Positions 5,211 to 29,495 of a stretch of DNA of 64,000 nucleotides are shown here, piece after piece. The notes beneath the pieces were generated by a model that was given only the letters and a program-made list of their open reading frames with translations, did no database searches and had not been told where the DNA came from. The first letter of the stretch is position 1. Every line of letters begins with the position of its first letter. This stretch comes from Vicinamibacterales bacterium (GTDB taxonomy: Bacteria > Acidobacteriota > Vicinamibacteria > Vicinamibacterales > UBA8438): contig OZ244838.1 of the NCBI GenBank assembly GCA_965220695.1, forward strand, positions 2,530,377 through 2,594,376, read 5' to 3'. The translations under genes and the position numbers were made by a program.

Positions 5211-6455
5211 TCACTCGGGATTCGTGATGACGACCGGCGTGTTGTGCGCCAGCGTGAAGTTGCCGTCGACCACGACGAGTTCACCCGCGCTGACACCGCG
5301 CAACGCCGCGTCGTCAGGCAGGATCTCCGTCTCGGCGCCGTTGGTCTCACCGAGCCCCACGTATTCCCATTCGGCGACATTGCCGCGCACCACCATGACG
5401 AGCGGCCGGTCGTCGCTGTAGAGCACCGCGGCGTTCGGGACGATCAGTCGATCCGGGAGCACCCTCCCTGTCATGGTGACCCGAACGTGCGAGCCTGAAC
5501 GCAACGGCGGTTGCCCGGACTCCACCGACAGGGTGACCAGGCCGACGCGACGCGTCGCATCGACGAGCGGTGAGATCCGCAGAATCCTGCCGTCCAGCAT
5601 CCGGTCAGGATCCGCTGCCGGCTGCATCGTCGCGCGGCCTCCGGGCAGGAGGCTGGCCAGGTCCGCTTCCAGCACCTCCGCATGCACCTCCACCTCGTCG
5701 AGGTCGACGAGCGTCAGCAGCGGCTCACCGGCGCCAACGACCTGTCCCACCTGCACGGCCACCTCGGCCACGGTCCCGGCGAACGGCGCGCGGACCACGC
5801 ACCGGTCGATCCGCAACTCGGCCTCCTCGATCGCGACCTCGGCGGCCGAAAGGCCAACGTCCGCCCGGATTGACCGGTCCCGTTGCTCCGGCTCGCCCAG
5901 CGCGCCGAGGTCGCGCGCACGCCTGGCGGCTTCCAGTTCGCGTCGCGGGATCAACCCGCGCGCGAACAGCCGTTCCATCTCGTCGAACTCCGCCGCCGTG
6001 ACGCCGCCGGGTTTCCAGAGTCCACCGGCCACATCGTCCTGTCCGATCCCGCGCGACGCGTACTGCATCAGGGCGCGCTGCCGGTCGGCATTGGCCCGCC
6101 GCAGGCTCAGCTCCGCGTCGCGGCAGTCGAAGCGTACCAACAGATCGGCCGCCGCTACGCGGGCGCCTTCCGGCCACGGCAACTCGACGACCGCGGCCCC
6201 CGCGCCGCTCACCAGCTCCAGCAGGCGCGTCGCCCGCACCTCGCCGTCCACCGCAACGGAGTGGACGAGATCGCCCCGCCGAGCCGGGGCGACGGTTACC
6301 GGCACGGCCTGCCGCTCCTGGTCGCGCTCGACGGCAGGCGCGCGCGCCGGCGGATCGGCCGCGGACTCCGTGGATCCGACCGAACATGCGCCGCTGGCGG
6401 CGACGGCGCCGAGACCCAGGAGCATCCCGAGCCGTCTCACGCGCGTGGTCTCCAT
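5211..6455 (-). CDS. RND efflux periplasmic adaptor (HlyD/MFP family) lipoprotein
   Basis: 414-aa ORF. Signal plus Cys (LGAVAASGACS), a coiled-coil-like Ala/Arg/Glu-rich middle and a beta-barrel C-terminus. Last gene of the RND operon. Confidence 0.8.
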   Translation of the reverse strand: METTRVRRLGMLLGLGAVAASGACSVGSTESAADPPARAPAVERDQERQAVPVTVAPARRGDLVHSVAVDGEVRATRLLELVSGAGAAVVELPWPEGARVAAADLLVRFDCRDAELSLRRANADRQRALMQYASRGIGQDDVAGGLWKPGGVTAAEFDEMERLFARGLIPRRELEAARRARDLGALGEPEQRDRSIRADVGLSAAEVAIEEAELRIDRCVVRAPFAGTVAEVAVQVGQVVGAGEPLLTLVDLDEVEVHAEVLEADLASLLPGGRATMQPAADPDRMLDGRILRISPLVDATRRVGLVTLSVESGQPPLRSGSHVRVTMTGRVLPDRLIVPNAAVLYSDDRPLVMVVRGNVAEWEYVGLGETNGAETEILPDDAALRGVSAGELVVVDGNFTLAHNTPVVITNPE

Positions 6456-6491
6456 GCTTCCCTCTACAGACTCCTGGCAGCGCGTCAGACG

Positions 6492-9400
6492 TTACGCAGG
6501 CGCGACCCGCCCGCTTCGACGCACCAGCCGTTTCACCTGCTCGCCCGCCATGTACAACGACGGCACGACAGCGAGCACCAGAATACTGGACGTCACCAGG
6601 CCGCCGACGGCCGATCGGGCCAGGTCAGACCAGAGATCAGGCTGTCCGGTCTGCGGCTGATCCCACAGCATCGGGAGCAGGCCGAGTGCGGTGGTTGCCG
6701 ACGTGAGGAGGACCGGCCGGACGCGGTCGATCGTCCCTTGCGTGGCTGCGGCGAACGCGCTCGACCCCGCGCGTCGCAGTTGGCTGATCCGGTCCATGAG
6801 CAGCACGCCGTTGTTGTCCACGATCCCGACGAGCAGAATCACCCCGATGTAGCCCGACGACGTGAAGCTCGCACCGGTCCAGAGGTACGTGTAGCAGACG
6901 CCGATGAGCGCCAGGGGAATCGTCGCCAGTACGATGACCGGGTGCCACAGGCTCTCGTACAAGACGGCAAGCACCATGAAGATCACGACCACGGCCGCCG
7001 CGAGCGCGAGGGTGAGCATCCGCGACTCGTCGTCCGTCACCAGGTACTCGTCGAGCCGATGCACCGAGAAGCCGGGGGGCGGCCGGATCGCCTCGAACAC
7101 CTGTTGTTCGTACTCACTGGCAAGTTGCGGCGGTCCCTGATAGTCCCACGAGACCGTCACCCTGTACTCCTGGTCCCGTCGATCGATCCCGTCCGGCACG
7201 AGCTGTTCCCGTACGTCTGCAAATTGCTCGATGCGCGCCGGCGCGCCGTAGCGCACGGGAGCGGTCAACCGCAGCAGCGAGTCGACATCCTGCCGGTCCG
7301 CGCCAGCGATCCTGAACTCCGTGACCTCGGGCAGCCGGTCGTCGCCCTCGAACCCGTACGCCCGGGGCGTCGCGCGCGCGCTGGCGAGCGATACGAAATC
7401 GAGAACGTCCTGCGGGTCCGCCCCGAGCCGCCGGATACCGGCGGGCCGCAGCGACAACGCCAGTTCGCGCTGCGACAGGTCGAGGCTGCCCATCGTGGTG
7501 TTACCGCGCGTCGATGTCGTGACGCGATACTCGACCACGCGCGGACTCAGGCGGGCCTGCCGGCCGATCGCGCCGGCCAACTCGACGGCGCTGTCCAGGG
7601 TGTAGCCCCGCACCTGCAGGCGGCTGTTGTGCGACGCGGGGAAGGCGAGCAGAGGGCCGGCCTGGAACGGGTCGCCGTACCCGGTCACGTTGACCGACAC
7701 GCGCGCGAACGCCGCGGCCTGCTCCACGAGGCGCCGGCGTGCGACAAAAGGCAGGCCGCGCGCCAGTTGCTCGTCCGAGAATGTCACCTCCAGCCGGGCC
7801 GTCTGGCCGTCGACCTCCACCCAAACGTCGCCGACGTCCTCGGCGGCGCGGTCCGACAGCAGCGCGTCCTCGAACGTCCGAATGACCTGATCCGTCCGCG
7901 CCGGGTCGGTGCCGCTCGGTGTCTGCACCTCAACCTGCAGCCGCTCCGTGACCGGCGGCTCGAGAAACCGGCCGCGCGGGACGTCCTGCCAGAACCGCCA
8001 CCCCCCGTGGGCGCACAACGCGGCGGCGACGAGTGGCGTCACCCACCAATAGCGGACGACGAGCGCAACGGGACGCCGGAGCCGGCTCGGCCGGCGCGCG
8101 CCGGACGCCGCCGCCACGTTGGCGGGCAGCCATCGGACGCCGGCCGCCGGCACGATGAACCACGACACGACGACCGACGCCGCCAGCAGGGCAGTCAGGA
8201 CCAGCGCGAGCGGCGCGAACGTCACACCGAGCCGCCCCTCGAAGTAGATGAACGGCAGGAAGACACCGACCGTGGTCAACTGCGCGAAGAAGAGGGGCCG
8301 CGCCACCTCCGCGGCGCCGTCCACCACGGCGCGGCGGGTCGGCTCACCCCGCGACAGCCTGGTCGCGACGTTCTCGACGATGACGACCGCGTTGTCGACC
8401 AGCATCCCGAGACCGAGCGCCATCGCGGCCAGCGTGAGGATGTTGATCGACAGGCCCGCTCGCGTCATGAACGACAGTGTGAGCGCCGCGGTGGCGCCGG
8501 CGGTCAACAGCAGCAGCAACGGCGTCCGGAGGTTACGGAACACGACGAGCAAAGCCGCGGCCACAAACCCCAGGATCCAGACCAGCCGGCGGCCGAGCGA
8601 GCCGAGCTCCGCGCGAATCCGGTCTGCGCCGTCGCGGGTGATGAAGTGTCGGAGGTCGCCCGGCAGCGCGGCGATGCGCGTCGAGAGCAACGCCCGCACG
8701 CGGTCCGACAGCTCCAGCACGTTGGCGCCGGGCTCCCGCTCCAGCACCAGCGCGACGCGCGGCTGGCCCTGGAACCGGTATTCCCGATCGGGTGGCGCCG
8801 ACTGGCGTCGCACCGACGCCACATCGTCGAGGCGCACGCGCCCGTCGAAACCCGGCAGCCTCAGGGCGCGCAGCGATTCGAGCGTCTGCGCGGACGCCTC
8901 GACAACGACCTCCAGCCGACGCTCGGAGCGATCGACGTAGCCGGCGTGCCTCTGGCGCACGGCGTCCAACACGAAGGCTCTGACCGTAGCGGGCGCCAGC
9001 GCGAGCTGGTTCAGCGCATCCGGATCAAGTTCCACCGCCAGCAACTCGCGCCGGCCGCCGAGCATCGTGACGCGCGCGATCCCCTCCAACGCGACGAGAC
9101 GGCTCTGGAACTCGTCTCGCACCGTGCGGCGTAACGCCTCCGGCGACAGCGCGCCCGTCAGGAAGACGGTCAGGAATGCCTCCTGGCGCAGCTCCGGCGG
9201 CACGTATTGCAGCAGCCGGGGCGCACGGGCGCCGACCGGCCAGTCCCGTTCGAACACGCGCAGCGCGTCGCGCAGGGCGAGCCGACCGACGTCGAGCCGT
9301 GCCTCCGGGTCGAAAAACACCCGCACGACGGCGCGTCCGCGCTCTGTTCTCGACGCGACGCTTCGCACGCCCGCGAGACGCGAGGCTGCCGCCTCGACCC

Positions 9401-9587
9401 GCGAGGTCATCGCCGCCTCCATCGCCGGCGGCGCCGCGCCCGGCCACGTCAGGTCGACGTCGACGGCCGGATAGCTCAGCTCCGGCATCAACTCGATCGA
9501 CACCTGCGTCGCGTCGAAGACAGCGAGCACGCCAAGGGCGAGAGCGGCCATTCCGACGGTGACCGGATGCGCCGCCGCCCACCGCAT
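6492..9587 (-). CDS. RND (AcrB/MdtC-type) inner-membrane efflux permease
   Basis: Track ORF 6492..9974. The probable start is ATG 9587 (MRWAAAHPVTVGMAAL...), 8 nt after the stop of the upstream RND gene. 12-TM/large-loop architecture. AcrB-like motifs (VIVENV, LLVGIVDNNGVLL). Confidence 0.85.
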   Translation of the reverse strand: MRWAAAHPVTVGMAALALGVLAVFDATQVSIELMPELSYPAVDVDLTWPGAAPPAMEAAMTSRVEAAASRLAGVRSVASRTERGRAVVRVFFDPEARLDVGRLALRDALRVFERDWPVGARAPRLLQYVPPELRQEAFLTVFLTGALSPEALRRTVRDEFQSRLVALEGIARVTMLGGRRELLAVELDPDALNQLALAPATVRAFVLDAVRQRHAGYVDRSERRLEVVVEASAQTLESLRALRLPGFDGRVRLDDVASVRRQSAPPDREYRFQGQPRVALVLEREPGANVLELSDRVRALLSTRIAALPGDLRHFITRDGADRIRAELGSLGRRLVWILGFVAAALLVVFRNLRTPLLLLLTAGATAALTLSFMTRAGLSINILTLAAMALGLGMLVDNAVVIVENVATRLSRGEPTRRAVVDGAAEVARPLFFAQLTTVGVFLPFIYFEGRLGVTFAPLALVLTALLAASVVVSWFIVPAAGVRWLPANVAAASGARRPSRLRRPVALVVRYWWVTPLVAAALCAHGGWRFWQDVPRGRFLEPPVTERLQVEVQTPSGTDPARTDQVIRTFEDALLSDRAAEDVGDVWVEVDGQTARLEVTFSDEQLARGLPFVARRRLVEQAAAFARVSVNVTGYGDPFQAGPLLAFPASHNSRLQVRGYTLDSAVELAGAIGRQARLSPRVVEYRVTTSTRGNTTMGSLDLSQRELALSLRPAGIRRLGADPQDVLDFVSLASARATPRAYGFEGDDRLPEVTEFRIAGADRQDVDSLLRLTAPVRYGAPARIEQFADVREQLVPDGIDRRDQEYRVTVSWDYQGPPQLASEYEQQVFEAIRPPPGFSVHRLDEYLVTDDESRMLTLALAAAVVVIFMVLAVLYESLWHPVIVLATIPLALIGVCYTYLWTGASFTSSGYIGVILLVGIVDNNGVLLMDRISQLRRAGSSAFAAATQGTIDRVRPVLLTSATTALGLLPMLWDQPQTGQPDLWSDLARSAVGGLVTSSILVLAVVPSLYMAGEQVKRLVRRSGRVAPA

Positions 9588-9595
9588 GAGCGGCG

Positions 9596-12500
9596 TCAGC
9601 ACGTCACGGCCTCGCGGCGCGGCGCCGGCGCCAGCACGTCGTACAGCACCGGGACGACACAGATCGACAGGACCGTGCCGGCGAGGAGCCCGCCAATCAG
9701 CGTCAGCGCCAGCGCCCGCTGCAGCTCGTGGGCCGGCGCGGTGGTCAGCGCCAGCGGCGCGACCGCCAGCACGGTCGTGACCGTCGTCATCAGGATCGGC
9801 CGCACGCGCAGCAGTGCCGCCGCGATGATGGCCTGTCGCGCGCCGCCCGGTTCGGCGTCGCGGTGTTTCAGGCGGATGAAGTCGACCATGACGACGGCGT
9901 CGTCCACCCCGATCCCGATCAGCACCGCGGCCGCCATGATCGTGAAGACGTTCACGGTCAGGCCGAACACCCACCAGGTGGCGACGACGCCGGCCAGCGT
10001 CAGCGGCACGGCGAGGAGCACGACGAACGCCAGGCGGACCGACTCGAACTCTGCCGACAGGCAGATCGCAACGAGCACCAGTGCGATAATCAGGACCCAG
10101 CGAAACGAGGCGAGCGACTCGGCGGCGTCGGCGCTCCGTGTCCGCACCTGTACGCGGACGTCGGGCGGCAGCGAAAGCTGCGCCAGCGCCTCGCCCAGAC
10201 GGCGCTCCAGGCCGGCCCGGGCCAGACCGTCCGGCGCCAGGCTCACCGTCAGCACCCGGCGGTGGTCGCGCCGAGTGATTTCCGCCGCCGCCGCGTCCGC
10301 CACGGGCGTACCGAGCAGGCCGAGCGGCACCTGCGGCCGGCGCGCCGCGGCCCCGCCCTCGCGGCCCTCGACCAGGCCGCGCCGCGGCACGATCGGGATT
10401 CGGTCGAGCGACGACGCGGGGCTCGCGCCGTGTTCCAGCGAATGCCGCAAGACCACCTGCAACGGCGGGTCCCCGATGCGGAGCTGGGCGACCGTGTCCC
10501 CACGCGTGACGTAGCCGATTTGTTCCGCGGTCTCAGCCGCCGAGAGGCCGAACGCGCCCAGAGCGTCCTGGTCGAGGTTCAGCCGGACTTGCGACACGGG
10601 GTCCGGCGGCGCGGCGACGACCCGGCCGAGATCGCCGCGGTCGTCGACGAGCGCGGCGAACGCATCCGCAAGCCGCCGCAACTCCGCCAGGTCGGCGCCC
10701 GAAAAGGCGACATCGATCGGGCCGGCCAGCAAGCCGAGGACATCGTGCAGCGGCGTCCGGGTGGGCTCGACCCGCACGTCGAAACCCGGTAGCCGCCGCT
10801 CGACCGCGCGCCCGAGATCGCCCACTCCCGCCGAGTCCGCCACATGGAACTGCGCCCGCACCGCGGCGCGGCGCATCCATCCGTCGCCAGTCAGGTCATT
10901 GACCGCCTGCAGGCCCGCCGTGGTCAGCACCTGCTCGGCGTCCGTCGCCGCCTCGATGGTCGCTTCGAGCGTGGCGGCGGCCAGCTCCAGATGCTCGATC
11001 GCCATGCCGTGGCGCGGGTCCGCCGCCACGCTGACGTCGCCGGTGTCGACCGGTGGCGCCACCTCGCGCGGCGTCCGAAGCACCCCGACGGCGGCCGCGA
11101 CCACTAGCGCCGCGGCGGCCGAGAGCGTCAGCCACCGGCGCCGCAGCAGCACGCCGAGCAGCCGTCCGAGAACCGTGGTCCACGGCTCCTTGGGCGCCCG
11201 CACCGGCCCCCGTCCCGCCAGGAGCGCCGACAGCGCCGGGACGAGGGTCAACGACACGACCCACGCCACCACGACCGCCACGCTCACCGTGACCGCCTGG
11301 TCGCGGAAGAGCGCGCCGGCGAAGCCGCCGACCGCGACCACCGGCAGGAAGACGACCAGCGTGGTGACGGTCACGCTCGTGATCGGCGCCAACACCTGCG
11401 ACGTCCCGGCCGTCGCGGCGGCGGCCGGCGCGAAGCCTTGTTCGCGATGCCGCTGGATGTTCTCGACGACGATGATCGCCGTGTTGACCAGCAGGCCGAC
11501 GCCAACTGCCAACCCGCCCAGGGAAATGACGTTGATCGAGATGTCGAGCCAGTCCATCGCCGCCAGGGCGCCGAGCACCGCCACCGGAACGACGATGCCG
11601 ATCACGACCGACTGCCGCCAGTCGCCCAGGAAGAAGAAGAGCACGCCGAAAGCGAGCGCGCCGCCCAGGACAACGGAGGTCAACGCCCCGCGCAACGCGT
11701 CACGGATGAAGCCGGCCTGCGCGTAGGCGACGTCGAGCCCGATATCCGGGTGCTGCGCACGGAACTCGTCGAGCAGGCCGGTGACCGCGTCGGTCAGCGC
11801 CAGGGCGTTGCCGGAGGCGTCCTTGTAGAGGCGGATCCCGACGACCGGCCGGCCCGCGAAGCGCAGCACCGAATCCGGCTCGCTCGGCGCCATGCCGACG
11901 CGGGCGACGTCGGCGAGCAGCACGCGGGGGTCTGCGCCTGGCTCGGAGACGACGACCGTCGCGAAGTCCGACACCGACTCGACGAGGGCAGGCACGCGCA
12001 GGCTGTAGCGATACGGTCCCTTTCGGAGCGTGCCGCTCTCCGGGACCGTCACCGCCCGGCGCAGCGCCTCCGCGATCTCCGCCGGCGCGACGTCCAGCAG
12101 GCGCGCCCGGGCGGGGTCGATCTCCACCAGTACCCGCTCGTCCCGGGCGCCGGCCAACTCGGCGCTGGCAACGCCCGGAATCTGCTCCAGCCGCGGCCGG
12201 AGAAGCTCGCGAATCGCCTTGCTGAGGGCGATCAGGCGCCACGCCTCCTGCGCGCCGGCCGCCGGCGCCAGCGACACGCCGTACCCGGCCCAATCCAGGT
12301 CGCCGCTCGAGCCGCCGTTACGCGGATCGCTGGTTGACGCCGCCAACACCAGGAACGGACGGTTTCCCGGATCCCACCGTCGCACCGTGGGGGGCGCCGC
12401 CGCCTCCGGCAAACCGTAGCGCACCTCGTCCAGCCGTTCCCGGACGTTGAGAATGGCGATGTCGACGTCTGTCATCCAGGGGAAGGTCAGCGTGATCACG

Positions 12501-13841: not shown

Positions 13842-13920
13842 ACTGTCGGACAACGTGGACATCACAACAGGGCGCACCGATGGGTTTGCAGGGTGCGCCG
13901 CGCGTGACGGGAGTGGGGCG

Positions 13921-15171
13921 ATGCGAACGACACGGAGCCGGTGCGGCCGGGCAACCGGTCGCAGAGCGCGCTCTTCGCGCGGATCCTTCGTGATCGGTTC
14001 CCACCGGCAGTGCGTCCGTCTGGGGCTGCTTGGCGCGGCACTGGTAACGGCCTGCGCCGGGCCGACGCAGCCGCATGCGATCGATGCGCAAGGCCGCCCG
14101 GCGGTCATTGATGAGAGGATTACGATTACGTGGCCGGTGGGTGTGCCCTCGGGAGTGATCGCTAACATTGAGATTTGCGGCGATCGCGCGTATCTGCGTG
14201 TGGCTCGGCAGCAAGTGATCCGCGTGGTTGACCTCGCTGCAGGACGGGTGGTGGGGCAGATCGGCCGCGGCGGTGAAGGGCCCGGCGAGTTGCGGTCCCC
14301 GACAGGTCTCATGGTGGATTGCGCCCGCGGGAGGCTCTATGTCGGCGAGGGTCCCTCCGGCATCACCGTCTATCGCCTTTCGGACGGGGAGTACGTGCGA
14401 AAATATTTCCAGCCGGATACCTTCGGGTTGACCGTCGGGTCTCCGATGTTTCTGTCGCCGGACGGCGCACGCCTGTTTGCGGGAGGATTGTGGGCGGCAT
14501 CAATGGAGCGATGGCGGGGCTTCAACCGCCGCCCGCAGGATGAAGTGCTGGCAGGGATGCAATTGGGCTTGGCCGTGTCCCTGGCGGACGGCGCCGCGAC
14601 ACCGTTGTTGTCGGGCCCGATCGAAACCACCTGTATCGGTTTGTTCGAGAACTGCCGTACCGTGACGATAGCGCGTGTGGACGGCGCGTCGGACCCGTGG
14701 GTCGTTGCGCAGGCCACCGCGACCTCGCTCGGCGTGTACGACCACGACGGTGCGCTGGTGCGCACCATCGACGTGCGGTCGCCGTCGTTTCTGCGCGACG
14801 GGTCCCGCGCGCAGCGCATGAGCCGCGACGGCGGCGGGCTGGTGGCCATGGCGGATTGGGGCCTGACCAACAGCACCATCCGGATGGTCTACGCATTCGG
14901 GAATGTTATCGCCACCGTGCACCGACATCATGCAGTGGAGTACAACCAGCTGGGAACGATGCAGTACAACGTCTTCATGAACCTGCACTCGCACGATGGG
15001 GATGCGCTTGTCAGTGACATCCGCCTGCCGGGTCTTCCGCTGGGACGCGACGACACGCACCTGCTGTTCATCGACTGGGGGCAGGCCGGACGCAGGATGG
15101 CCTTCGACGCGGTGGACCTCGTGCGCGTGCCGGTCCTGGCCGGCGAGGCCGGCTTCGTGCGGGGCGAATAG
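13921..15171 (+). CDS. NHL-repeat-like beta-propeller lipoprotein, paralog 1 of 5
   Basis: Track ORF 13855..15171. ATG 13921 (MRTTRSRCGR...) is conserved in all five paralogs. Lipobox-like LGAALVTAC. NHL-like motif GQIGRGGEGPGELRSP. Conserved Cys pairs (ICGDRAY, DCARGRL, TCIG..ENCRTV). Confidence 0.7.
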   Translation: MRTTRSRCGRATGRRARSSRGSFVIGSHRQCVRLGLLGAALVTACAGPTQPHAIDAQGRPAVIDERITITWPVGVPSGVIANIEICGDRAYLRVARQQVIRVVDLAAGRVVGQIGRGGEGPGELRSPTGLMVDCARGRLYVGEGPSGITVYRLSDGEYVRKYFQPDTFGLTVGSPMFLSPDGARLFAGGLWAASMERWRGFNRRPQDEVLAGMQLGLAVSLADGAATPLLSGPIETTCIGLFENCRTVTIARVDGASDPWVVAQATATSLGVYDHDGALVRTIDVRSPSFLRDGSRAQRMSRDGGGLVAMADWGLTNSTIRMVYAFGNVIATVHRHHAVEYNQLGTMQYNVFMNLHSHDGDALVSDIRLPGLPLGRDDTHLLFIDWGQAGRRMAFDAVDLVRVPVLAGEAGFVRGE

Positions 15172-15172
15172 C

Positions 15173-15736
15173 ATGGAGGACTCGTTGGATGCACCCGGAT
15201 CCACGACCGGCACGTCGACGGCGGCAACTGCCGACGGCGAGGCGGCGAGGTCGACGGTCGCCGGCCGTACGGTCGGGCGGCCCCGTTCCAGGTTGCGTGT
15301 GGCGGCCAGACTGCTGTTGGGGGCGCTGATCCTCGTGTCCGTCGGCGTGCTCATCAGCGACTACCGGCGGCAAGTCACCTGGACACGGGATCTGGCGGCG
15401 GCGTATGCGTTCGTCGCGGACCATCCCGAGGTGTCACGGTATCTCCCCTGCTTTTGCGGTTGCGGTCAACAGGCGGGACATTCGTCCGTGGACAGTTGCT
15501 TCGTGAGTCGACGGGACGATGCAGGGAACGTCGTCTCCGAGAACGCACACGCCAGAACCTGACCGGTGTGCGTCGACATCGCGCGTGTCGCGATGCGGAT
15601 GCACCAAGGCGGCGACACGGTTTCCGAGATTCAAGGCGCCATCGATGGAGCATACGGGGCGACGAATGTCCTCAGAACCGACACCCCGGCATGGCCAGAC
15701 CAGCGACCGGCCGCGGAGGCCGAGACGCCGCAGTAG
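15173..15736 (+). CDS. Membrane-anchored PCYCGC-family protein with in-frame TGA at 15560-15562 (candidate selenocysteine, U-P-V-C), copy 1
   Basis: ATG lies 1 nt after the NHL-1 stop (TAGcATG). TM helix RLRVAARLLLGALILVSVGVLI. AYAFVADHPEVSRYLPCFCGCGQQAGHSSVDSCF matches the PCYCGC signature. The track ORF stops at TGA 15560, but the frame stays open 57 more codons (PVCVDIARVAMRMHQGGDTVSEIQGAIDGAYG...) to TAG 15734-15736. A hairpin follows the TGA. Confidence 0.6.
15568..15604 (+). promoter_or_regulatory. SECIS-like hairpin 6 nt downstream of TGA 15560
   Basis: GUGCGUC/GGAUGCAC outer stem (7 bp, one G-U), a 2x2 internal loop, CAUCGCG/CGCGAUG inner stem (7 bp) and apical loop CGUGU at 15584-15588, i.e. 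22-26 nt after the UGA. Identical in all three copies. Confidence 0.5.
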
Positions 15737-15860: not shown

Positions 15861-16147
15861 GCAAGACCTGTAGGGGCAACCCTTGTGGTTGCCCTGTTGT
15901 ACGCAAGACCTGTAGGGGCAACCCTTGTGGTTGCCCTGTTGTACGCAAGACCTGTAGGGGCAACCCTTGTGGTTGCCCTGTTGTACGCAAGACCTGTAGG
16001 CGCAACCCTTGTAGTTGCCCTGTTGTACGCAAGACCTGTAGGGGCAACCCTTGTGGTTGCCCTGTTGTACGCAAGACCTGTAGGCGCAACCCTTGTAGTT
16101 GCCCTGTTGTACGCAAGACCTGTAGGGGCAACCCTTGTGGTTGCCCT
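15861..16147 (+). repeat. Tandem array of 7 x 42-bp REP-like hairpin units
   Basis: Unit gcaagacctgtaGGGGCAACCcttgtGGTTGCCCtgttgtac (8-bp stem, 5-nt loop). Copies start at 15861, 15903, 15945, 15987, 16029, 16071 and 16113. Copies 4 and 6 carry the same two substitutions (taggCgcaacccttgtAgttgccc). Confidence 0.9.
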
Positions 16148-16197
16148 CTTCGTCAGCAGGAACAACGACGCGCAGCAGGATGCAGCGTGAAACAGCA

Positions 16198-16257
16198 GAA
16201 TTCAGCGGGGAAAGGCTGAATTCAGCGGGAGAGCTCAGAATTCAGCGGGGATCGAAC
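16198..16257 (+). repeat. Tandem array of 3 x 20-bp GAATTCAGCGGG units
   Basis: GAATTCAGCGGG at 16198, 16218 and 16238, plus a degenerate fourth unit. The core (C)TGAATTCAG is palindromic and AT-rich relative to the genome. Confidence 0.85.
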
Positions 16258-16738: not shown

Positions 16739-17998
16739 ATGCGAACGACACGGCGTCGATGTGGCCGGGCGTGGCGGGTGATCGGCTACCGTGGGCACTC
16801 TCAGGGCAGGTCGTCCGTTGTCGGTTCGCACCGGCATTTTGTTTACCTGGGGCTGCTTGGCGCGGCACTGGTGACGGCCTGCGGCGGACCGACGCAGCCG
16901 TATGCGGTCGATGCGCAAGGGCGTCCGGCGGTCATTGATGACAGGATGACGATAACGTGGCCGGTGGGCGTGCCCTCGGGGCTGATTGCTAGCATCGAGA
17001 CCTGCGGCGGTCGCGCGTATCTGCACGTTGCTGGGCAGCAAGTGTTCCGCGTGGTTGACCTCGCCGCCGGGCGGGTTGTGGGGCAGATTGGCCGCGGCGG
17101 CGAAGGGCCCGGCGAGTTGCGGCAGCCGATAAGTCTCCTGGCGGATTGCGCACGCGGGAGGCTCTTCGTCGGCGAGGCTCCGGCCGGCATCACGGTCTAT
17201 CGCCTTCCGGACGGGGAGTACCTGCGAGAATTCTCCCTGCCGTGGCGTACGTTCGGGTTGTCTACCTTTACTCCGATGTTTCTGTCGCCGGACGGCGCAC
17301 GCCTGTTTGCGGGCGGGTTGTGGGCATCAAGAGATCGATGGCAGGGCTTTAGCCGGCGCCCGCAGGATGAAGTGCTGGCGGGGATGCAATCGGGTCTGGC
17401 CTTGTCCCTGGTGGACGGCGCGGCGGCGCCCTTGTTCTCGAGCCCGATCGAACCCGCCTGCATCGGATCGCAAAACGACTGTCGCACCGTGGCGATAGCG
17501 CGTGTGGAGGGGGCGCCGGACCCGTGGATCGTCGCGCAGGCCACCGCGACCTCGCTCGGCGTGTACGACGACGACGGTGCGCTGGTGCGCACCATCGACG
17601 TGCGGTCGCCGTTGTTCCTGCGCGACGGGTTCCGCGCGCGGCGCATGAGCCGCGATGGCGGGGGCTTTGCGGCCATGGTGGATTGGGGCCTGACCAACAG
17701 CACCGTCGGGAACGTCTACGCATTCGGGGACGTGATCGCCACCGTGCACCGACATCATGCAGTGGAGTACAACCAGCCGGGGCCCCTGCAGTACAACGTC
17801 CTCATGAACCTGCACTCGCACGATGGGGATGGGCTGGTCAGCGACATCCGCCTGCCGGGTCTTCCGCTGGGACGCGACGACACGCACCTGCTCTTCATCG
17901 ACTGGGGGCAGGCTGGACGCAGGATGGCCTTCGACGCGGTGGACCTCGTGCGGGTGCCGGTCGTGGCCGGCGAGGCCGGCTTCGTGCGGGGCGAATAG
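16739..17998 (+). CDS. NHL-repeat-like beta-propeller lipoprotein, paralog 2
   Basis: Track ORF 16331..17998. Conserved ATG 16739 (MRTTRRRCGRAW...), LGAALVTAC lipobox, GQIGRGGEGPGELRQP. High identity to paralog 1. Confidence 0.7.
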   Translation: MRTTRRRCGRAWRVIGYRGHSQGRSSVVGSHRHFVYLGLLGAALVTACGGPTQPYAVDAQGRPAVIDDRMTITWPVGVPSGLIASIETCGGRAYLHVAGQQVFRVVDLAAGRVVGQIGRGGEGPGELRQPISLLADCARGRLFVGEAPAGITVYRLPDGEYLREFSLPWRTFGLSTFTPMFLSPDGARLFAGGLWASRDRWQGFSRRPQDEVLAGMQSGLALSLVDGAAAPLFSSPIEPACIGSQNDCRTVAIARVEGAPDPWIVAQATATSLGVYDDDGALVRTIDVRSPLFLRDGFRARRMSRDGGGFAAMVDWGLTNSTVGNVYAFGDVIATVHRHHAVEYNQPGPLQYNVLMNLHSHDGDGLVSDIRLPGLPLGRDDTHLLFIDWGQAGRRMAFDAVDLVRVPVVAGEAGFVRGE

Positions 17999-17999
17999 C

Positions 18000-18542
18000 A
18001 TGGAGGACTCTGTGGACGCACCCGGATCCACGACCGACACGTCGACGGCGGCGAGTTCGACGGTCGCCGGCCGAACGGTCGGGCGGCCCCGTTCCAGGAT
18101 GCGTGTGGCGGCCAGACTGCTGTTGGGGGCGCTGATCCTCGTGTCCGCCGGCGTGCTCATCAGCGACTACCGGCGGCAAGTCACCTGGACGCGAGATCTT
18201 GCGGCGGCGTATGCGTTCGTCGCGGACCATCCCGAGGTGTCACGGTATCTCCCCTGCTTTTGCGGTTGCGGTCAACAGGCGGGACATTCGTCCGTGGACA
18301 GTTGCTTCGTGAGTCGACGGGACGAGGCAGGGAACGTCGTCTCCGAGAACGCACACGCCAGAACCTGACCGGTGTGCGTCGACATCGCGCGTGTCGCGAT
18401 GCGGATGCACCAACGCGGCGACACGGTTTCCGAGATTCAAGGCGCCATCGATGGAGCATACGGGGCGACGAATGTCCTCAGAACCGACACCCCGGCATGG
18501 CCAGACCAGCGACCGGCCGCGGAGGCCGAGACGCCGCAGTAG
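18000..18542 (+). CDS. PCYCGC-family candidate selenoprotein, copy 2 (in-frame TGA 18366-18368)
   Basis: ATG lies 1 nt after the NHL-2 stop. Same architecture as copy 1, with a 7-aa deletion in the N-terminal tail. The frame continues from the TGA to TAG 18540-18542. Confidence 0.6.
18374..18410 (+). promoter_or_regulatory. SECIS-like hairpin after TGA 18366
   Basis: Sequence identical to the hairpin at 15568-15604. Confidence 0.5.
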
Positions 18543-18664: not shown

Positions 18665-18825
18665 GCAAGACCTGTAGGGGCAACCCTTGTGGTTGCCCTG
18701 TTGTACGCAAGACCTGTAGGGGCAACCCTTGTGGTTGCCCTGTTGTACGCAAGACCTGTAGGCGCAACCCTTGTAGTTGCCCTGTTGTACGCAAGACCTG
18801 TAGGGGCAACCCTTGTGGTTGCCCT
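18665..18825 (+). repeat. Tandem array of 4 x 42-bp REP-like hairpin units
   Basis: Units start at 18665, 18707, 18749 (variant type) and 18791. Same consensus as the array at 15861. Confidence 0.9.
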
Positions 18826-18875
18826 CTTCGTCAGCAGGAACAACGACGCGCAGCAGGATGCAGCGTGAAACAGCA

Positions 18876-18975
18876 GAATTCAGCGGGGAATGGCTGAATT
18901 CAGCGGGTGAGCTCAGAATTCAGCGGGGAAAGGCTGAATTCAGCGGGAGAGCTCAGAATTCAGCGGGGATCGAAT
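18876..18975 (+). repeat. Tandem array of 5 x 20-bp GAATTCAGCGGG units
   Basis: GAATTC at 18876, 18896, 18916, 18936 and 18956, plus a degenerate terminal unit. Confidence 0.85.
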
Positions 18976-19461: not shown

Positions 19462-20736
19462 ATGCGAACGACACGGAGCCGATGTGGCCGGGCGTGGCGG
19501 GTGATCCGCTACCGTGGGCACTTTCGGCGCAGGTCGTCCGTTGTTGGTTCCCACCGGCATTTCGTTTGCCTGGGACTGCTTGGCGCGGCGCTGATAGCGG
19601 CCTGCGGCGAGCCGAGGCAGTATGCGGTCGATGCTCACGGGCGTCCGGCGGTCATTGACGATCGCGTGACGATAACGTGGCCGGTGGACGTGCCCTCGGG
19701 ACTGATCCTTCTTGCCGCGACCTGCGGTGATCGCATGTATCTGCGCGCGACAGGCCAGCAACGCGCGTCTCGCCAGCAAGTGATCCGCGTGGTTGACCTC
19801 GCCGCCGGACGGGTGGTGGGGCAGATCGGCCGAGGCGGCGAAGGGCCCGGCGAGTTGGAACAGCCGACAACTCTCCTGGCGGATTGCGCACGCGGGAGGC
19901 TCTTCGTCGGCGACCCTCCGGCCGGCATCAAGGTATATCGCCTTCCGGACGGGAAGTATCTGCGAGATTTCTCCCTGCCGTGGCGTACGTTCGGGTTGTC
20001 CACTTTGACTCCGATGTTTCTGTCGCCGGATGGCGCACACCTGTTTGCGGGCGGGTTGTGGGCATCAACAGATCAATGGATGGGCTTCAACGCGCGTCCG
20101 CAGGATGAAATGCTGGCGGCGATGCAATTGGGCTTGGCCTTGTCCCTGGCGGACGGCACGGCGGCGCCGTTGTTCTCTGGTCCGGTCGAAACTGCCTGCA
20201 TTGGATTGCCCGAGAACTGCCGCACGGTGACGATAGCGCGTGTGGACGGGGCGCCGGACCCGTGGATCGTCGCGCAGGCCACCGCGACCTCGCTCGGCGT
20301 GTACGACGACGACGGGGCGCTGGTGCGCACCATCGACGTGCGGTCGCCATCGTTCCTGCGGGACGGATCCCGGGCGCGGCGCATGAGACGCGATGGTGGG
20401 GGCTATGCGGCCATGGTGGATTGGGGCCTGACCAACAGCACCATCCGGAACGTCTACGCATTCGGGGACGTGATCGCGACCGTGCATCGGTATCACGCCA
20501 CGGAGTACAACCAGCAGGGGCCCCTGCAGTACAACGTCTTCATGAACCTGCACTCGTACGATGGGGATGGGCTGGTCAGCGACATCCGCCTGCCGGGTCA
20601 TCCGGTGGGCCGCGACGACACGCACCTGCTCTTCATCGACTGGGGGCAGGCCGGACGCAGGATGGCCTTCGACGCGGTGGACCTCGTGCGCGTGCCGGTC
20701 CTGGCCGGCGAGGCCGGCTTCGTGCGGGGCGAATAG
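19462..20736 (+). CDS. NHL-repeat-like beta-propeller lipoprotein, paralog 3
   Basis: Track ORF 18907..20736. Conserved ATG 19462 (MRTTRSRCGRAW...). Carries a short internal duplication (LRATGQQRASRQQVIRVVD) that is shared with paralog 4. Confidence 0.7.
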   Translation: MRTTRSRCGRAWRVIRYRGHFRRRSSVVGSHRHFVCLGLLGAALIAACGEPRQYAVDAHGRPAVIDDRVTITWPVDVPSGLILLAATCGDRMYLRATGQQRASRQQVIRVVDLAAGRVVGQIGRGGEGPGELEQPTTLLADCARGRLFVGDPPAGIKVYRLPDGKYLRDFSLPWRTFGLSTLTPMFLSPDGAHLFAGGLWASTDQWMGFNARPQDEMLAAMQLGLALSLADGTAAPLFSGPVETACIGLPENCRTVTIARVDGAPDPWIVAQATATSLGVYDDDGALVRTIDVRSPSFLRDGSRARRMRRDGGGYAAMVDWGLTNSTIRNVYAFGDVIATVHRYHATEYNQQGPLQYNVFMNLHSYDGDGLVSDIRLPGHPVGRDDTHLLFIDWGQAGRRMAFDAVDLVRVPVLAGEAGFVRGE

Positions 20737-20982: not shown

Positions 20983-22260
20983 ATGCGAACGACACGGAGC
21001 CGATGTGGCCGGGCGTGGCGGGTGATCGGCTACCGTAGGCACTCTCAGCGCAGGTGTTCCGTGATCGGTTCCCACCGGCAGTTCGCCTGTCTGGGGCTGC
21101 TTGGCGCGGCGCTGGTGACGGCCTGCGCCGGACCGACGCAGCCGTATGCGGTCGATGCGCAAGGGCGCCCGGCGGTCATCGACGATCGGGTGACGATAAC
21201 GTGGCCGGCGGGCGTGCCCTCGGGACTGATCGTTCTTGCCGCGACCTGCGGTGATCGCGTGTATCTGCGCGCGACTGGCCAACAACGCGCGTCTCGCCAG
21301 CAAGTGATCCGCGTGGTTGACCTCGCCGCCGGACGGGTGGTGGGGCAGATCGGCCGCGGCGGCGAAGGGCCCGGCGAGTTGCAGCAGCCGACAACTCTCC
21401 TGGCGGATTGCGCACGCGGGAGGCTCTTCGTCGGCGACCCTCCGGCCGGCATCAAGGTCTATCGCCTTCCGGACGGGGAGTACCTGCGAGATTTCTCCCT
21501 GCCGTGGCGTACGTTCGATTTGTCCACCTTGACTCCGATGTTTCTGTCGCCGGATGGCGCACGCCTGTTTGCGGGCGGGATGTGGGCATCAACAGAACAA
21601 TGGCTGGGCTTCAACGCGCGCCCGCAGGATAAATTGCTGGCGGGGATGCAATTGGGCTTGGCCTTGTCCCTGGCGGACGGCGCGGCGGCACCGTTGTTCT
21701 CTGGTCCGGTCGAAACCGCCTGCATTGGATTGCCCGAGAACTGCCGCAACGTGACGATAGCGCGTGTGGACGGGGCGCCGGACCCGTGGATCGTCGCGCA
21801 GGCCACCGCGACCTCGCTCGGCGTGTACGACGACGACGGCGCGCTGGTGCGCACCATCGACGTGCGGTCGCCGTCGTTCCTGCGCGACGGGTCTCGCGCG
21901 CGGCGCATGAGCCGCGATGGCGGGGGCTATTCGGCCATGGTGGATTGGGGCCTGACCAACAGCACCATCCAGGACGTCTACGCATTCGGGGACGTGATCG
22001 CCACCGTGCATCATTATCACGCCACGGAGCGCAACCAGCAGGGGCCCCTGCAGTACAACGTCTTCATGAACCTGCACTCGCACGATGGGGATGGGCTGGT
22101 CAGCGACATCCGCCTGCCGGGTCATCCGGTGGGCCGCGACGACACGCACCTGCTCTTCGTCGACTGGGGGCAGGCCGGACGCAGGATGGCCTTCGACGCC
22201 GTGGACCTCGTGCGCGTGCCGGTCCTGGCCGGCGAGGCCGGCTTCGTGCGGGGCGAATAG
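20983..22260 (+). CDS. NHL-repeat-like beta-propeller lipoprotein, paralog 4
   Basis: Track ORF 20953..22260. Conserved ATG 20983. Same motifs as the other paralogs. Confidence 0.7.
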   Translation: MRTTRSRCGRAWRVIGYRRHSQRRCSVIGSHRQFACLGLLGAALVTACAGPTQPYAVDAQGRPAVIDDRVTITWPAGVPSGLIVLAATCGDRVYLRATGQQRASRQQVIRVVDLAAGRVVGQIGRGGEGPGELQQPTTLLADCARGRLFVGDPPAGIKVYRLPDGEYLRDFSLPWRTFDLSTLTPMFLSPDGARLFAGGMWASTEQWLGFNARPQDKLLAGMQLGLALSLADGAAAPLFSGPVETACIGLPENCRNVTIARVDGAPDPWIVAQATATSLGVYDDDGALVRTIDVRSPSFLRDGSRARRMSRDGGGYSAMVDWGLTNSTIQDVYAFGDVIATVHHYHATERNQQGPLQYNVFMNLHSHDGDGLVSDIRLPGHPVGRDDTHLLFVDWGQAGRRMAFDAVDLVRVPVLAGEAGFVRGE

Positions 22261-22502: not shown

Positions 22503-23771
22503 ATGCGAACGACACGGCGCCGATGTGGCCGGGCGTGGCGGGTGACCGGGCACCGTGTGCGCTCTCAGGGCAGGTCGTCCGTTGTCGGTTCGTACCGGCA
22601 TTTTGTTTACCTGGGGCTGCTTGGCGCGGCGCTGATAACGGCCTGCGCCGAGCCGAGGCAGTATGCGGTCGATGCGCACGGGCGTCCGGCGGTCATCGAC
22701 GAACGGGTGACGATAACGTGGCCGGTGGGCGTGCCCTCGGGACTGATCAACGGTGTCGAGACCTGCGGCGATCGCGCGTATCTGCACGTGTCTCGGCAGC
22801 AAGCGATCGGCATCCGCGTGGTTGACCTCGTCGCCGGACGGGTGGTGGGGCAGATCGGCCGAGGCGGCGAAGGGCCCGGCGAGTTGCGGCAACCGATAAG
22901 TCTCCTGGCGGATTGCGCACGCGGGAGGCTCTTCGTCGGCGAGGCTCCGGCCGGCATCACGGTCTATCGCCTTTCGGACGGGGAGTACCTGCGAGAATAC
23001 CCCCTGCCGCGGCGTCCCTTCACCTTCGGGTTTTCCACCCTTACTCCGATGTTTCTGTCGCCGGACGGCGCACGCCTGTTTGCGGGCGGGTTGTGGGCAT
23101 CAAGAGAACGATGGCAGGACTTCAGTTGGCGCCCGCAGGATGAAGTGCTGGCGGGGATGCAATCGGGTCTGGCCTTGTCGCTGGCGGACGGCGCGGCGGC
23201 GCCCTTGTTCTCGAGCCCGATCGAACCCGCCTGCATCGGATCGCACAACGACTGCCGCATCGTGACGATAGCGCGTGTGGACAGGGCGCCGGACCCGTGG
23301 ATCGTCGCGCAGGCCACTGCGACCTCGCTCGGCGTGTACGACGACGACGGCGCGCTGGTGCGCACCATCGACGTGCGGTCGCCGTCGTTCCTGCGCGACG
23401 GGTCCCGCGCGCGGCGCATGAGCCGCGATGGCGGGGGCTTTGCGGCCATGGCGGATTGGGGCCTGACCAACAGCACCATCCGGAGGGTCTACGCATTCGG
23501 GGACGTGATCGCCACCGTGCACCGACATCATGCAGTGGAGTACAACCAGCCGGAATACCTCCAGTACAACGTCTTCATGAACCTGCACTCGCACGATGGG
23601 GATGGGCTGGTCAGCGACATCCGCCTGCCGGGTCTTCCGCTGGGACGCGACGACACGCACCTGCTGTTCATCGACTGGGGGCAGGCCGGACGCAGGAACG
23701 CCTTTGATGAAGTGGACCTCGTGCGCGTGCCGGTCCTGGCCGGCGAGGCCGGCTTCGTGCGGGGCGAATAG
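22503..23771 (+). CDS. NHL-repeat-like beta-propeller lipoprotein, paralog 5
   Basis: In frame within track ORF 21786..23771. Conserved ATG 22503 (MRTTRRRCGRAW...). The upstream part of the track ORF is an out-of-context read-through across paralog 4. Confidence 0.7.
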   Translation: MRTTRRRCGRAWRVTGHRVRSQGRSSVVGSYRHFVYLGLLGAALITACAEPRQYAVDAHGRPAVIDERVTITWPVGVPSGLINGVETCGDRAYLHVSRQQAIGIRVVDLVAGRVVGQIGRGGEGPGELRQPISLLADCARGRLFVGEAPAGITVYRLSDGEYLREYPLPRRPFTFGFSTLTPMFLSPDGARLFAGGLWASRERWQDFSWRPQDEVLAGMQSGLALSLADGAAAPLFSSPIEPACIGSHNDCRIVTIARVDRAPDPWIVAQATATSLGVYDDDGALVRTIDVRSPSFLRDGSRARRMSRDGGGFAAMADWGLTNSTIRRVYAFGDVIATVHRHHAVEYNQPEYLQYNVFMNLHSHDGDGLVSDIRLPGLPLGRDDTHLLFIDWGQAGRRNAFDEVDLVRVPVLAGEAGFVRGE

Positions 23772-23772
23772 C

Positions 23773-24336
23773 ATGGAGGACTCGTTGGACGCACCCGGAT
23801 CCACGACCGGCGCGGCGACGGCGGCAACTGCCGACGGCGAGGCGGCGAGGTCGACGGTCGCCGGCCGTTCGGTCGGGCGGCCCCGTTCCAGGTTGCGTGT
23901 GGCGGCCAGACTGCTGTTGGGGGCGCTGATCCTCGTGTCCGTCGGCGTGCTCATCAGCGACTACCGGCGGCAAGTCACCTGGACACGGGATCTGGCGGCG
24001 GCGTATGCGTTCGTCGCGGACCATCCCGAGGTGTCACGGTATCTCCCCTGCTTTTGCGGTTGCGGTCAACAGGCGGGACATTCGTCCGTGGACAGTTGCT
24101 TCGTGAGTCGACGGGATGAGGCAGGACACGTCGTCTCAGAGAACGCACACGCCAGAACCTGACCGGTGTGCGTCGACATCGCGCGTGTCGCGATGCGGAT
24201 GCACCAACGCGGCGACACGGTTTCCGAGATTCAAGGCGCCATCGATGGAGCATACGGGGCGACGAATGTCCTCAGAACCGACACCCCGGCATGGTCAGGC
24301 CAGCGACCAGCCGCGGAGGCCGAGACGCCGCAGTAG
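23773..24336 (+). CDS. PCYCGC-family candidate selenoprotein, copy 3 (in-frame TGA 24160-24162)
   Basis: ATG lies 1 nt after the NHL-5 stop. The frame continues from the TGA to TAG 24334-24336. A few substitutions relative to copy 1 occur on both sides of the TGA. Confidence 0.6.
24168..24204 (+). promoter_or_regulatory. SECIS-like hairpin after TGA 24160
   Basis: Sequence identical to the hairpin at 15568-15604. Confidence 0.5.
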
Positions 24337-28301: not shown

Positions 28302-29495
28302 ATGACATATGGACACGTCCTGAGGGCGATGACGATAGTGCTTGCGGTCGTCGGCGCCGCCGCCGCGCAAACGCCGGAGACGGTGCAGCCGGCGCACGAC
28401 AACCTGGAGCCGGGCACGCGCACCGACGACCTGGGCATCACCATCGGCATCCCGGTGGAGCATCCCGGACGCCGCTACCCGGCGTCGCACGAGTTTCCCA
28501 CCGGGCCCGAGATCGGCGAGCGCCTGCCGACGTTCACGCTGCCCAACCAGCAGGGCCGGCTCATCGACTATCACGCCGATCGGGGCGACTCGAAATCGAT
28601 TGTGGTGTTCTATCGCTCGGCGGTGTGGTGACCGTACTGCCGCACGCAGCTGGTCGAGCTGCAAGACAACCTGGACCTCTTCGAGGACGCCGGCATCCGC
28701 GTCTACGGCATCAGCTACGACCGCCCGGGCCAGCTCCTGGCCTTTGCCGAGCAGTACGACGTGACCTACGACCTGCTGTCGGACGTCGATTCGGCGGTGA
28801 TTCGGGAGTTCGGCATCCTCAACACGCTGATCTCTCCCGACGACCCTGAACAGGCGGCCGGACGCAGTTTCCATGGCGTGCCGTTCCCGGGTGTCTACGT
28901 GACGGACGAGCACGGCGTGGTCACGGAGAAGTTCTTCCACCGCCACTATGCGACGCGTGAATCGGCGGGCAGCATCCGCGACTCGGCGCTGGGCGAGATT
29001 CTGGCGCGTCACGAGGTGCCGGCCGTCGAGCTGGGCACCGACCAGGTGCGGATCTCCGCCTTCCTGTCCGATACCTCGCTGAAGTTCGAGACCCAGTCGA
29101 CGATCTACGTGCGGTTCGAGCTCGAAGAGGGCCTGCACATGTATGGCCGGCCGCTGCCCGACGGGTACATCGCCTCGGGGGCCACCATACCGGACACGCC
29201 CGGGTTGCGAGTGGGGGCCGCGCGATACCCGCCGACCCACCCTCGGGAGTTCCCGGAGCTGGGGGTCACGCTCAACGTCTACGAGGGGGTTGTCGACGTC
29301 GCGATTCCGGCGACGCCGAATTCCGAGCTGTTCAACCCCGGGGGCCAGGACCAGCCGGAGGAACTGATCGTCCCGGTGTCGGTGCTGTTCCAGGTCTGCA
29401 GCGAGACGATCTGCTACACACCGCGGACGGAGACGGTGTCGCTGACGCTGCCTGTCGCGCCCCTGCTGAGGCCCGGCGCTCCGCGAGCACGGTAG
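28302..29495 (+). CDS. Secreted redoxin/AhpC-TSA-type thiol:disulfide oxidoreductase selenoprotein (Sec at TGA 28629-28631) fused to a DsbD-N-terminal-like domain
   Basis: Track ORFs 28128..28631 and 28761..29495 are in the same frame, separated only by the TGA. The context IVVFYRSAVW-[TGA]-PYCRTQLVELQ is the W-C-P-x-C redoxin active site with Sec replacing the first Cys. Signal peptide MTYGHVLRAMTIVLAVVGAAAAQ. C-terminus ...FQVCSETICYTPR is DsbD-alpha-like. Confidence 0.8.
28646..28662 (+). promoter_or_regulatory. SECIS-like hairpin after TGA 28629
   Basis: GCAGCU-GGUCG-AGCUGC (6-bp stem). The GGUC-containing loop begins 21 nt after the UGA, reminiscent of the E. coli fdhF SECIS loop. The stem is short, so this is tentative. 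Confidence 0.4.

Follow-up and report, generated by a model that had tools for sequence, protein, structure and literature searches.

Does an in-frame TGA in a PCYCGC-family gene end the protein, or is it read as selenocysteine (Sec)? The question is raised by a 64,000-nt stretch of DNA from a Vicinamibacterales bacterium (GCA_965220695.1, contig OZ244838.1, positions 2,530,377–2,594,376 of the forward strand), called here the window and numbered from its first nucleotide. From ATG 15173 the frame reads ...SENAHART and reaches TGA 15560–15562, where the first open reading frame (ORF, 15173–15562) closes; it then continues as PVCVDIARVAMRMHQGGDTVSEIQGAIDGAYG... for 57 codons up to TAG 15734–15736. 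An earlier reading of this DNA, referred to below as the original prediction, had described the extension, and its translation strings match ours exactly. It had also placed Sec at the TGA, within a CxxC motif of the PCYCGC protein. This proposal is strongly supported by Sec/Cys pairs, by purifying selection after the TGA, by a hairpin and by a second selenoprotein gene, and we are strongly confident that TGA 15560 encodes Sec. The gene is present in three copies, with the following features:

15173–15736, plus strand: predicted PCYCGC/CYCXC-domain selenoprotein gene, copy 1 (187 aa including Sec130; true stop TAG 15734–15736)
15302–15358 (approximately residues 44–62), plus strand: hydrophobic anchor of copy 1, the only one, C-terminal to a low-complexity N-terminal tail
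15446–15463, plus strand: P-C-F-C-G-C motif of copy 1
15560–15562, plus strand: predicted Sec codon UGA of copy 1 (U130-P-V-C133), in the column where the sole CxxC of the family has its first Cys
18000–18542, plus strand: predicted PCYCGC selenoprotein gene, copy 2 (TGA 18366–18368; identical hairpin at 18374–18410)
23773–24336, plus strand: predicted PCYCGC selenoprotein gene, copy 3 (TGA 24160–24162; identical hairpin at 24168–24204)

The three genes are 97–98% identical in nucleotides, and the window contains the 30 nt that surround the TGA three times (TGA 15560, 18366 and 24160), where none is expected by chance. Almost certainly, this is a genuine, mis-annotated selenoprotein gene in triplicate, representing a new member or a sister subfamily of a known Sec-containing family. 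Taken by itself, an open extension of 57 codons is not significant in DNA of 67% GC and constitutes weak evidence. Genome-wide reassignment of TGA, which the original prediction had also thought unlikely, is ruled against because TGA is the ordinary terminator of 11 of the 25 long ORFs with high GC at third codon positions in the window, including imuB- and dnaE2-like genes.

The TGA falls on a near-invariant cysteine of the PCYCGC domain

The products obtained with and without readthrough were compared to the PF13798 (PCYCGC) profile, whose gathering threshold is 25 bits. With a Cys in place of the stop, the match scores 79.6 bits and covers profile positions 53–151 of 153, whereas the truncated product scores 43.6 bits over positions 53–106. 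Both are above the threshold, and the domain runs past the TGA to position 151; stopping at the TGA does therefore remove a conserved part of the domain, as had been claimed. The window protein carries the full set of PF13798 residues: P-C-[YF]-C-G-C, His, Cys, His and C-x-x-C, Sec being the first Cys of the latter.

To this profile comparison we added an alignment of homologs. A HMMER search of 1.84 billion cluster representatives with a full-length Cys homolog (P0004) returned 930 family members, the best 150 of which were aligned. The TGA column (C82 of P0004) is a Cys in 146 of these 150 representatives, and its partner three residues on (C85) in 149. C82 and C85 form the sole CxxC of the domain. 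Also near-invariant are H55, C61, H78 and the three cysteines C45, C47 and C49, which make up the C-x-C-x-C of 'PCYCGC'. The family pattern with a second CxxC on which the original prediction relied was thus essentially right, and the TGA does sit at the first Cys of this pair. Three database proteins (P0009, P0220 and P0223) end exactly before the TGA column. Non-Cys residues at the column include Trp in P0068 and Gly in P0150; the idea that the latter hides a TGA was rejected, P0150 being a Cys-less variant with a true Gly codon.

TGA and cysteine codons alternate at the column among relatives

At the DNA level, the column holds TGA in the three window copies and in the relatives L001/L007, L006 (both copies), L010, L011, L013, L014, L016 and L021/L022. 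It holds TGC or TGT in L005, L009, L012, L015, L018, L020 and L023. Among the TGA carriers, L001/L007 is the Vicinamibacterales chromosome OZ244051.1 (65% identity), L010 a Gemmatimonadales metagenome-assembled genome (MAG), L011 a Sphaerobacterales MAG, and L013 and L014 are metagenome contigs. The TGA is conserved in at least seven distinct lineages; the TGA relatives show 33–65% protein identity and belong to three named orders or phyla as well as to metagenome contigs. The closest comparison is given by L021 (…HAET-TGA-KVCVDV…) and L023 (…HAET-TGC-KVCIDV…), syntenic orthologs that differ at exactly the TGA-column codon. Orthologs of both kinds, with TGA and with TGC or TGT, therefore exist, and an in-frame TGA facing a conserved Cys is the Sec/Cys pair by which a bacterial selenoprotein gene is recognised.

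If the TGA were instead a true stop, the locus would encode a 129-aa N-terminal protein and a separate 56-aa peptide starting at GTG 15566. A GTG-initiated ORF does exist at 15566–15736, and public gene calls give two products, of 102 aa and 45 aa, for the L001 ortholog. The GTG start is however not conserved, the corresponding codons being AGC-ATC in L010, GGC-ATC in L011 and ACG-ACA in L013. Moreover, in the lineages that lack the Cys at this near-invariant column, TGA is the only stop that occurs, TAA and TAG being absent, and a split at this point would sever both the CxxC pair and the helix that it caps. We consider a true stop very improbable.

Disrupted copies were seen in two relatives. 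In L006 (5589–5800), the second PCYCGC copy is frameshifted about 20 codons past the TGA on a long-read contig of 1x coverage; this is probably an assembly error, not a pseudogene. In L008 (3001–3400; Vicinamibacterales OZ253576.1), a copy 87% identical to that of the window is broken inside the PCFCGC motif (…VSRYP|HAFAAH…) and followed by unrelated sequence, which may mark a rearrangement or insertion breakpoint.

The sequence after the TGA is under purifying selection

The window was compared with eight homologs by Nei-Gojobori counts over the 33 codons that follow the TGA. In frame, the proportion of synonymous differences (pS) exceeds that of nonsynonymous differences (pN), with dN/dS of 0.20–0.65 in seven of the eight comparisons, while the two shifted frames, tested against L001 only, give pS < pN. 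Past the true stop, ungapped identity between the window and L001 falls to 17%. The post-TGA peptide is under purifying selection. The original prediction had cautioned that the three copies are too similar for selection to be tested; orthologs from other genomes overcome this limit.

These data bear on the possibility that the copies are pseudogenes, in which a nonsense mutation (TGC or TGT to TGA) killed one gene that was then duplicated. Three near-identical copies in the window could indeed derive from a single dead gene, and one L006 copy, on its 1x-coverage contig, is frameshifted downstream of the TGA. Against this, the same TGA recurs in several independent lineages, across the named orders or phyla and the metagenome contigs; the downstream frame is open and selected, with similarity vanishing only past the true stop; and a SECIS-type hairpin, described below, goes with TGA and not with TGC or TGT. 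Dead copies are, to our mind, an extremely improbable explanation.

A bacterial SECIS-like hairpin follows the TGA

Sec insertion in bacteria calls for a selenocysteine insertion sequence (bSECIS) downstream of the UGA. A candidate is found in copy 1:

15568–15604, plus strand: bSECIS-like hairpin of copy 1 (lower stem 15568–15574/15598–15604; upper stem 15577–15583/15589–15595; loop CGUGU 15584–15588)

This two-tier hairpin begins at UGA +6. In its upper stem, CAUCGCG pairs with CGCGAUG over 7 bp, and its 5-nt loop, CGUGU, starts 21 nt past the UGA. The published bSECIS model has a loop of 3–9 nt, an upper stem of 4–16 bp, a G as the first or second loop nucleotide (the next one usually being G or U), and a spacing of 16–37 nt with a minimum free energy of -7.5 kcal/mol or lower (PMC13188914, Fig. 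2A legend). The window hairpin agrees with the model in all four respects, with a loop of 5 nt (CGUGU), a stem of 7 bp, a spacing of 21 nt and a fold energy of -9.7 kcal/mol for the upper stem alone (-25.3 kcal/mol for the 51-nt fold).

Comparison among relatives ties the hairpin to the codon. All nine TGA sequences of the window-type clade pair along the whole upper stem (100%) and have a C-G-N-G-N loop; in both L011 and L014, a G-C pair of this stem is replaced by C-G, a compensatory double change. When loci were scored in a fixed register, the 7-bp stem and the loop G were present in 7/7 window-type TGA loci, and both together in 0/7 Cys loci. A search of the 64-kb window with Rfam gave no match; whether Rfam includes a bacterial SECIS model was not checked.

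One Cys form deserves separate mention. L012 (TGC; metagenome Ga0187777_10012659, 3166–3216) has kept the full two-tier stem (z = -5.07) with a loop CAUCA in which both G's are lost. This form is likely the trace of a recent change from Sec to Cys.

A second selenoprotein gene in the window and the case for Sec decoding

The window contains a further gene with an in-frame TGA, 13 kb from PCYCGC copy 1:

28302–29495, plus strand: predicted second selenoprotein gene (signal peptide, AhpC-TSA/Redoxin domain with W-U-P-Y-C at TGA 28629–28631, and C-terminal DsbD_N domain)

It reads ...VVFYRSAVW-TGA(28629)-PYCRTQLVELQ... and, with readthrough, matches AhpC-TSA/Redoxin at 96 bits and DsbD_N at 47 bits. 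A SECIS-like hairpin, GCAGCU-GGUCG-AGCUGC (-10.4 kcal/mol), lies 14 nt past the UGA, with the same spacer as the PCYCGC hairpin. The original prediction had pointed to a nearby redoxin gene (28302) with a Sec codon; the codon is present at TGA 28629–28631, 28302 being the ATG of the gene. This gene supports Sec decoding in the genome. As in other AhpC-TSA or peroxiredoxin-like UxxC selenoproteins, U comes first in the UxxC, as it does in the PCYCGC protein, and the window member has the same SECIS geometry; these proteins differ in having a thioredoxin fold, unrelated to the helical PCYCGC domain.

UGA might also be read through without Sec, by near-cognate insertion of Trp or Cys or by leaky, SECIS-independent termination. 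Such readthrough would agree with the fact that no Sec machinery is seen in the 64-kb window. It would leave aside, however, that the column is the catalytic-type Cys of a CxxC, the classic position of Sec/Cys exchange, that the hairpin fits the bSECIS model, that a second gene in the window carries W-U-x-x-C, and that the family is already recognised as Sec-containing (see below). We regard readthrough of this kind as very unlikely compared to Sec insertion.

Several observations weigh against Sec at this TGA. ARAGORN detected no tRNA in the 64-kb window, and a Pfam scan of about 30 window ORFs detected no selA, selB or selD. The comparison with L014 gave a dN/dS of 1.08. For DNA so rich in GC, the stability of the hairpin is unexceptional, with z-scores of 0.04 (81 nt) and -1.78 (51 nt); since stability alone does not discriminate in such DNA, we dropped it as evidence and relied on register, loop and codon association instead. 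The hairpin also overlaps a conserved peptide, D-I-A-R-x-A-M, which is itself partly palindromic in DNA, and the stem is kept in the Cys form L012. Finally, a second Sec subclade (L016 and L021) has only a weak, non-canonical hairpin that lies outside the bSECIS ranges.

A sister subfamily of a recognised selenoprotein family

The original prediction regarded the gene as representing a candidate new selenoprotein family. This does not stand. The only NCBIfam match of the window protein is NF041379, 'OS_HP4_CYCXC: CYCXC family (seleno)protein', over profile positions 10–89 of 90. PF13798/OS_HP4 is listed with a UxxC motif in a 2026 review (PMC13188914, Table 1), and OS_HP4 with UxxC in a 2022 review (PMC9312934). 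PF13798 is thus an already recognised, so far only predicted, selenoprotein family. The name OS_HP4 does not appear in the main text of either the 2007 Olavius paper (PMC1976440) or the 2008 GOS paper, and no entry called CYCXC came up when 5.8 billion proteins were searched with the profile. By inference from the alignment, the Sec site known in OS_HP4 is almost certainly the TGA column found here, because the sole CxxC of the domain is at that column.

The NF041379 score is 61.3 bits for the window protein and 52–78 bits for 17/17 relatives. As these values are below the equivalog cutoff of 90 bits, the window proteins form a sister subfamily, which NF041379 would not name. They have in common with OS_HP4/CYCXC the Pfam domain and the C-[YF]-C-x-C motif. 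The 'OS' of OS_HP4 stands for Olavius symbiont, a symbiont of a marine worm (PMC1976440), whereas the window subfamily is found in soil Acidobacteriota, Gemmatimonadota and Chloroflexota; it is further set apart from OS_HP4 by a membrane anchor at the N-terminus, by its three copies in tandem and by a linked propeller gene. Cys-form PCYCGC proteins, such as the lipoprotein AOT13_14730 of Parageobacillus thermoglucosidasius (PMC13068155), share the domain, the conserved Cys residues and the extracytoplasmic location. They differ in having Cys for Sec, no SECIS and other neighbours (an Fe3+ substrate-binding protein in P. thermoglucosidasius).

What is new here is modest, namely three tandem Sec copies, each coupled to a gene for a beta-propeller lipoprotein, and the finding opens no new category. 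It matters mainly for annotation. These genes are split in public gene calls, as in the 102 aa + 45 aa of OZ244051.1, and NF041379 misses the window subfamily by about 30 bits, so that Sec use in PF13798 proteins of soil Acidobacteriota, Gemmatimonadota and Chloroflexota is probably under-counted. The lineage has been described as one of aerobic soil bacteria. Selenoproteins are rarely retained by aerobic bacteria (2026 review, PMC13188914); here, an envelope-located selenoprotein would be present in triplicate beside a second, exported one.

Predicted structure, location and function

Copy 1 starts with an Arg-rich low-complexity tail, after which comes a hydrophobic segment (…RLRVAARLLLGALILVSVGVLIS…). 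According to the positive-inside rule, the segment is predicted to be a single-pass anchor with its N-terminus inside, which would place the PCYCGC domain outside the cytoplasm. Signal or lipobox N-termini are found in many PCYCGC homologs, and the Firmicutes members are lipoproteins (PMC13068155).

An AlphaFold2 model of P0004, built on the 150-sequence alignment (pLDDT 94.4), is mostly helical with one beta-hairpin, and has C82-x-x-C85 at the N-terminus of helix 83–97. In thioredoxin- and Dsb-type proteins, the reactive CxxC is usually at the N-terminus of a helix. No significant match came out of a Foldseek comparison of the model with the PDB (best E = 2.2, TM 0.28–0.50), and a profile-versus-PDB sequence search gave only chance matches to saposins. 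In the way they may work, CcmH, TlpA/ResA and DsbA offer a parallel, being small anchored or exported domains with a CxxC at a helix N-terminus as in the PCYCGC protein. A TlpA-like AhpC-TSA/Redoxin domain is fused to one PCYCGC homolog, and among the Foldseek matches only that to the periplasmic CXXC domain of CcmH, weak and non-significant, is related in theme. The likeness goes no further: there is no significant structural or sequence similarity to these proteins, and the PCYCGC fold is not thioredoxin-like and has an extra C-x-C-x-C/His/Cys/His cluster.

The fusion is found in L015 (metagenome Ga0105237_10088662, gene at about 1607–2500), where a Cys-form PCYCGC domain (71.6 bits) is joined to an AhpC-TSA/Redoxin domain with C-P-H-C (62.2 bits). 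It may be read as a Rosetta-stone hint of a thiol-redox partnership.

From these elements we propose the following course of events, modelled on the standard bacterial mechanism. SelB carrying Sec-tRNA(Sec) would bind the hairpin at 15568–15604 while the ribosome is at UGA 15560; selenocysteine would be inserted there, and translation would go on for 57 codons to UAG 15734. To judge from sequence and model, the product would be a single-pass membrane protein, anchored with its N-terminus inside and with its helical PCYCGC domain facing the cell envelope. The U-x-x-C pair would open an alpha-helix, with Sec130 as the N-terminal member of the pair. The C-x-C-x-C, His, Cys and His residues probably hold a metal ion, and U-x-x-C may be a redox-active selenylsulfide couple or possibly a pair of soft-metal ligands, this being the weakest step. 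The protein would probably carry out extracytoplasmic thiol/selenol chemistry together with the co-transcribed propeller lipoprotein. As a whole, the explanation that three genes produce Sec-containing, membrane-anchored, envelope-facing PCYCGC proteins with a redox or metal function appears highly probable to us. Within it we favour, with low to moderate confidence, a predicted selenylsulfide redox role in the envelope.

The same residues could primarily serve another purpose, U-x-x-C and the C-x-C-x-C/His/Cys/His cluster together forming a site for binding or trafficking of soft metals (Cu(I), Hg/Ag) in the envelope. Six near-invariant Cys and two His are present in the domain. The homolog L017 lies beside CtaG, DUF305, DUF3105 and Lgt, the first three of which we take to be copper-associated. 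L001 and the window adjoin efflux genes of the resistance-nodulation-division (RND)/HlyD-CzcB type, and the domain fused in L015 gives a weak match to SCO1/SenC. Several known UxxC selenoproteins bind metal (PMC13188914, Table 1). On the other hand, the domain fused in L015 scores 62 bits as AhpC-TSA/Redoxin versus 18.5 bits as SCO1, contexts are heterogeneous, with no conserved metal operon, and a CxxC at a helix N-terminus is compatible with either role. A primary role in soft-metal handling is therefore possible but somewhat unlikely. For the redox role as well, there are counterweights: function is deduced from the position of a motif, one fusion and gene linkage in neighbourhoods that are heterogeneous, and no solved structure resembles the PCYCGC fold in the Foldseek and profile searches of the PDB. 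The propeller partner, the fusion to a redoxin and the helix-capping position of the CxxC nevertheless provide a first handle on a domain that lacks a solved structure.

Propeller genes and gene neighbourhood

The PCYCGC genes are embedded in a tandem array of propeller genes:

13855–15171, plus strand: propeller gene, partner of copy 1 (DUF5128/NHL-like 6-bladed beta-propeller; lipobox-like N-terminus, …LVTAC…)
16817–17998, plus strand: propeller paralog 2 (81% aa identity to paralog 1; upstream of copy 2; coordinates of the part aligned by tblastn, the true start being further upstream)
19540–20736, plus strand: propeller paralog 3 (no PCYCGC gene after it)
21061–22260, plus strand: propeller paralog 4 (no PCYCGC gene after it)
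22581–23771, plus strand: propeller paralog 5 (followed directly by PCYCGC copy 3)

Each PCYCGC gene begins 1 nt past the TAG of a DUF5128/NHL-like propeller gene of about 400–440 aa. This distance between the propeller TAG and the selenoprotein ATG suggests that the two genes form an operon with translational coupling. Amplification has occurred in tandem in these soil Vicinamibacterales, with five propellers of 78–81% aa identity between 13855 and 23771 and three selenoprotein genes, which follow propellers 1, 2 and 5. The pairing is also found in L006 and L008, with a remnant in L001. In L016, L021 and L023, a propeller gene (40–41% identical) lies about 1 kb downstream of the PCYCGC gene. 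An unannotated 413-aa gene upstream of PCYCGC in L019/L020 was considered as a further propeller and rejected, as it is not homologous to that of the window.

We also entertain the idea that the Sec-PCYCGC protein and the propeller lipoprotein constitute an undescribed two-component extracytoplasmic selenoenzyme module, in which U-x-x-C would give or take electrons, or metal, for a reaction taking place on the propeller; this proposal is doubtful at present. No neighbourhood is conserved family-wide, the contexts including non-ribosomal peptide synthetase genes, regulators, copper genes and RND efflux genes.

The interspersed PCYCGC genes are 97–98% identical in DNA, including identical junctions (…gcgaatagcATGGAG), versus 78–81% in protein for the propellers, which points to gene conversion or to the small PCYCGC gene having spread recently.

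In the window, an RND efflux pair (HlyD-family membrane-fusion protein and AcrB-family pump; 5211–9974, minus strand) adjoins the propeller/PCYCGC array. In L001 (7350–11979), RND pump fragments and a CzcB-like gene flank the PCYCGC ortholog. This adjacency may be synteny only.

Repeat arrays downstream of copies 1 and 2

Directly 3′ of PCYCGC copies 1 and 2, and not of copy 3, are tandem arrays of a 42-bp unit, GCAAGACCTGTAGGGGCAACCCTTGTGGTTGCCCTGTTGTAC, at 15861–16147 (6.8 copies) and 18665–18825 (3.8 copies), with 96% matches. Each unit holds an inverted repeat, GGGCAACC…GGTTGCCC. Besides these arrays, 20-bp repeats are found at 16195–16251 and 18873–18969. A CRISPR-like nature of the 42-bp array was rejected, as it has no spacers; it may be a REP-like or terminator array.

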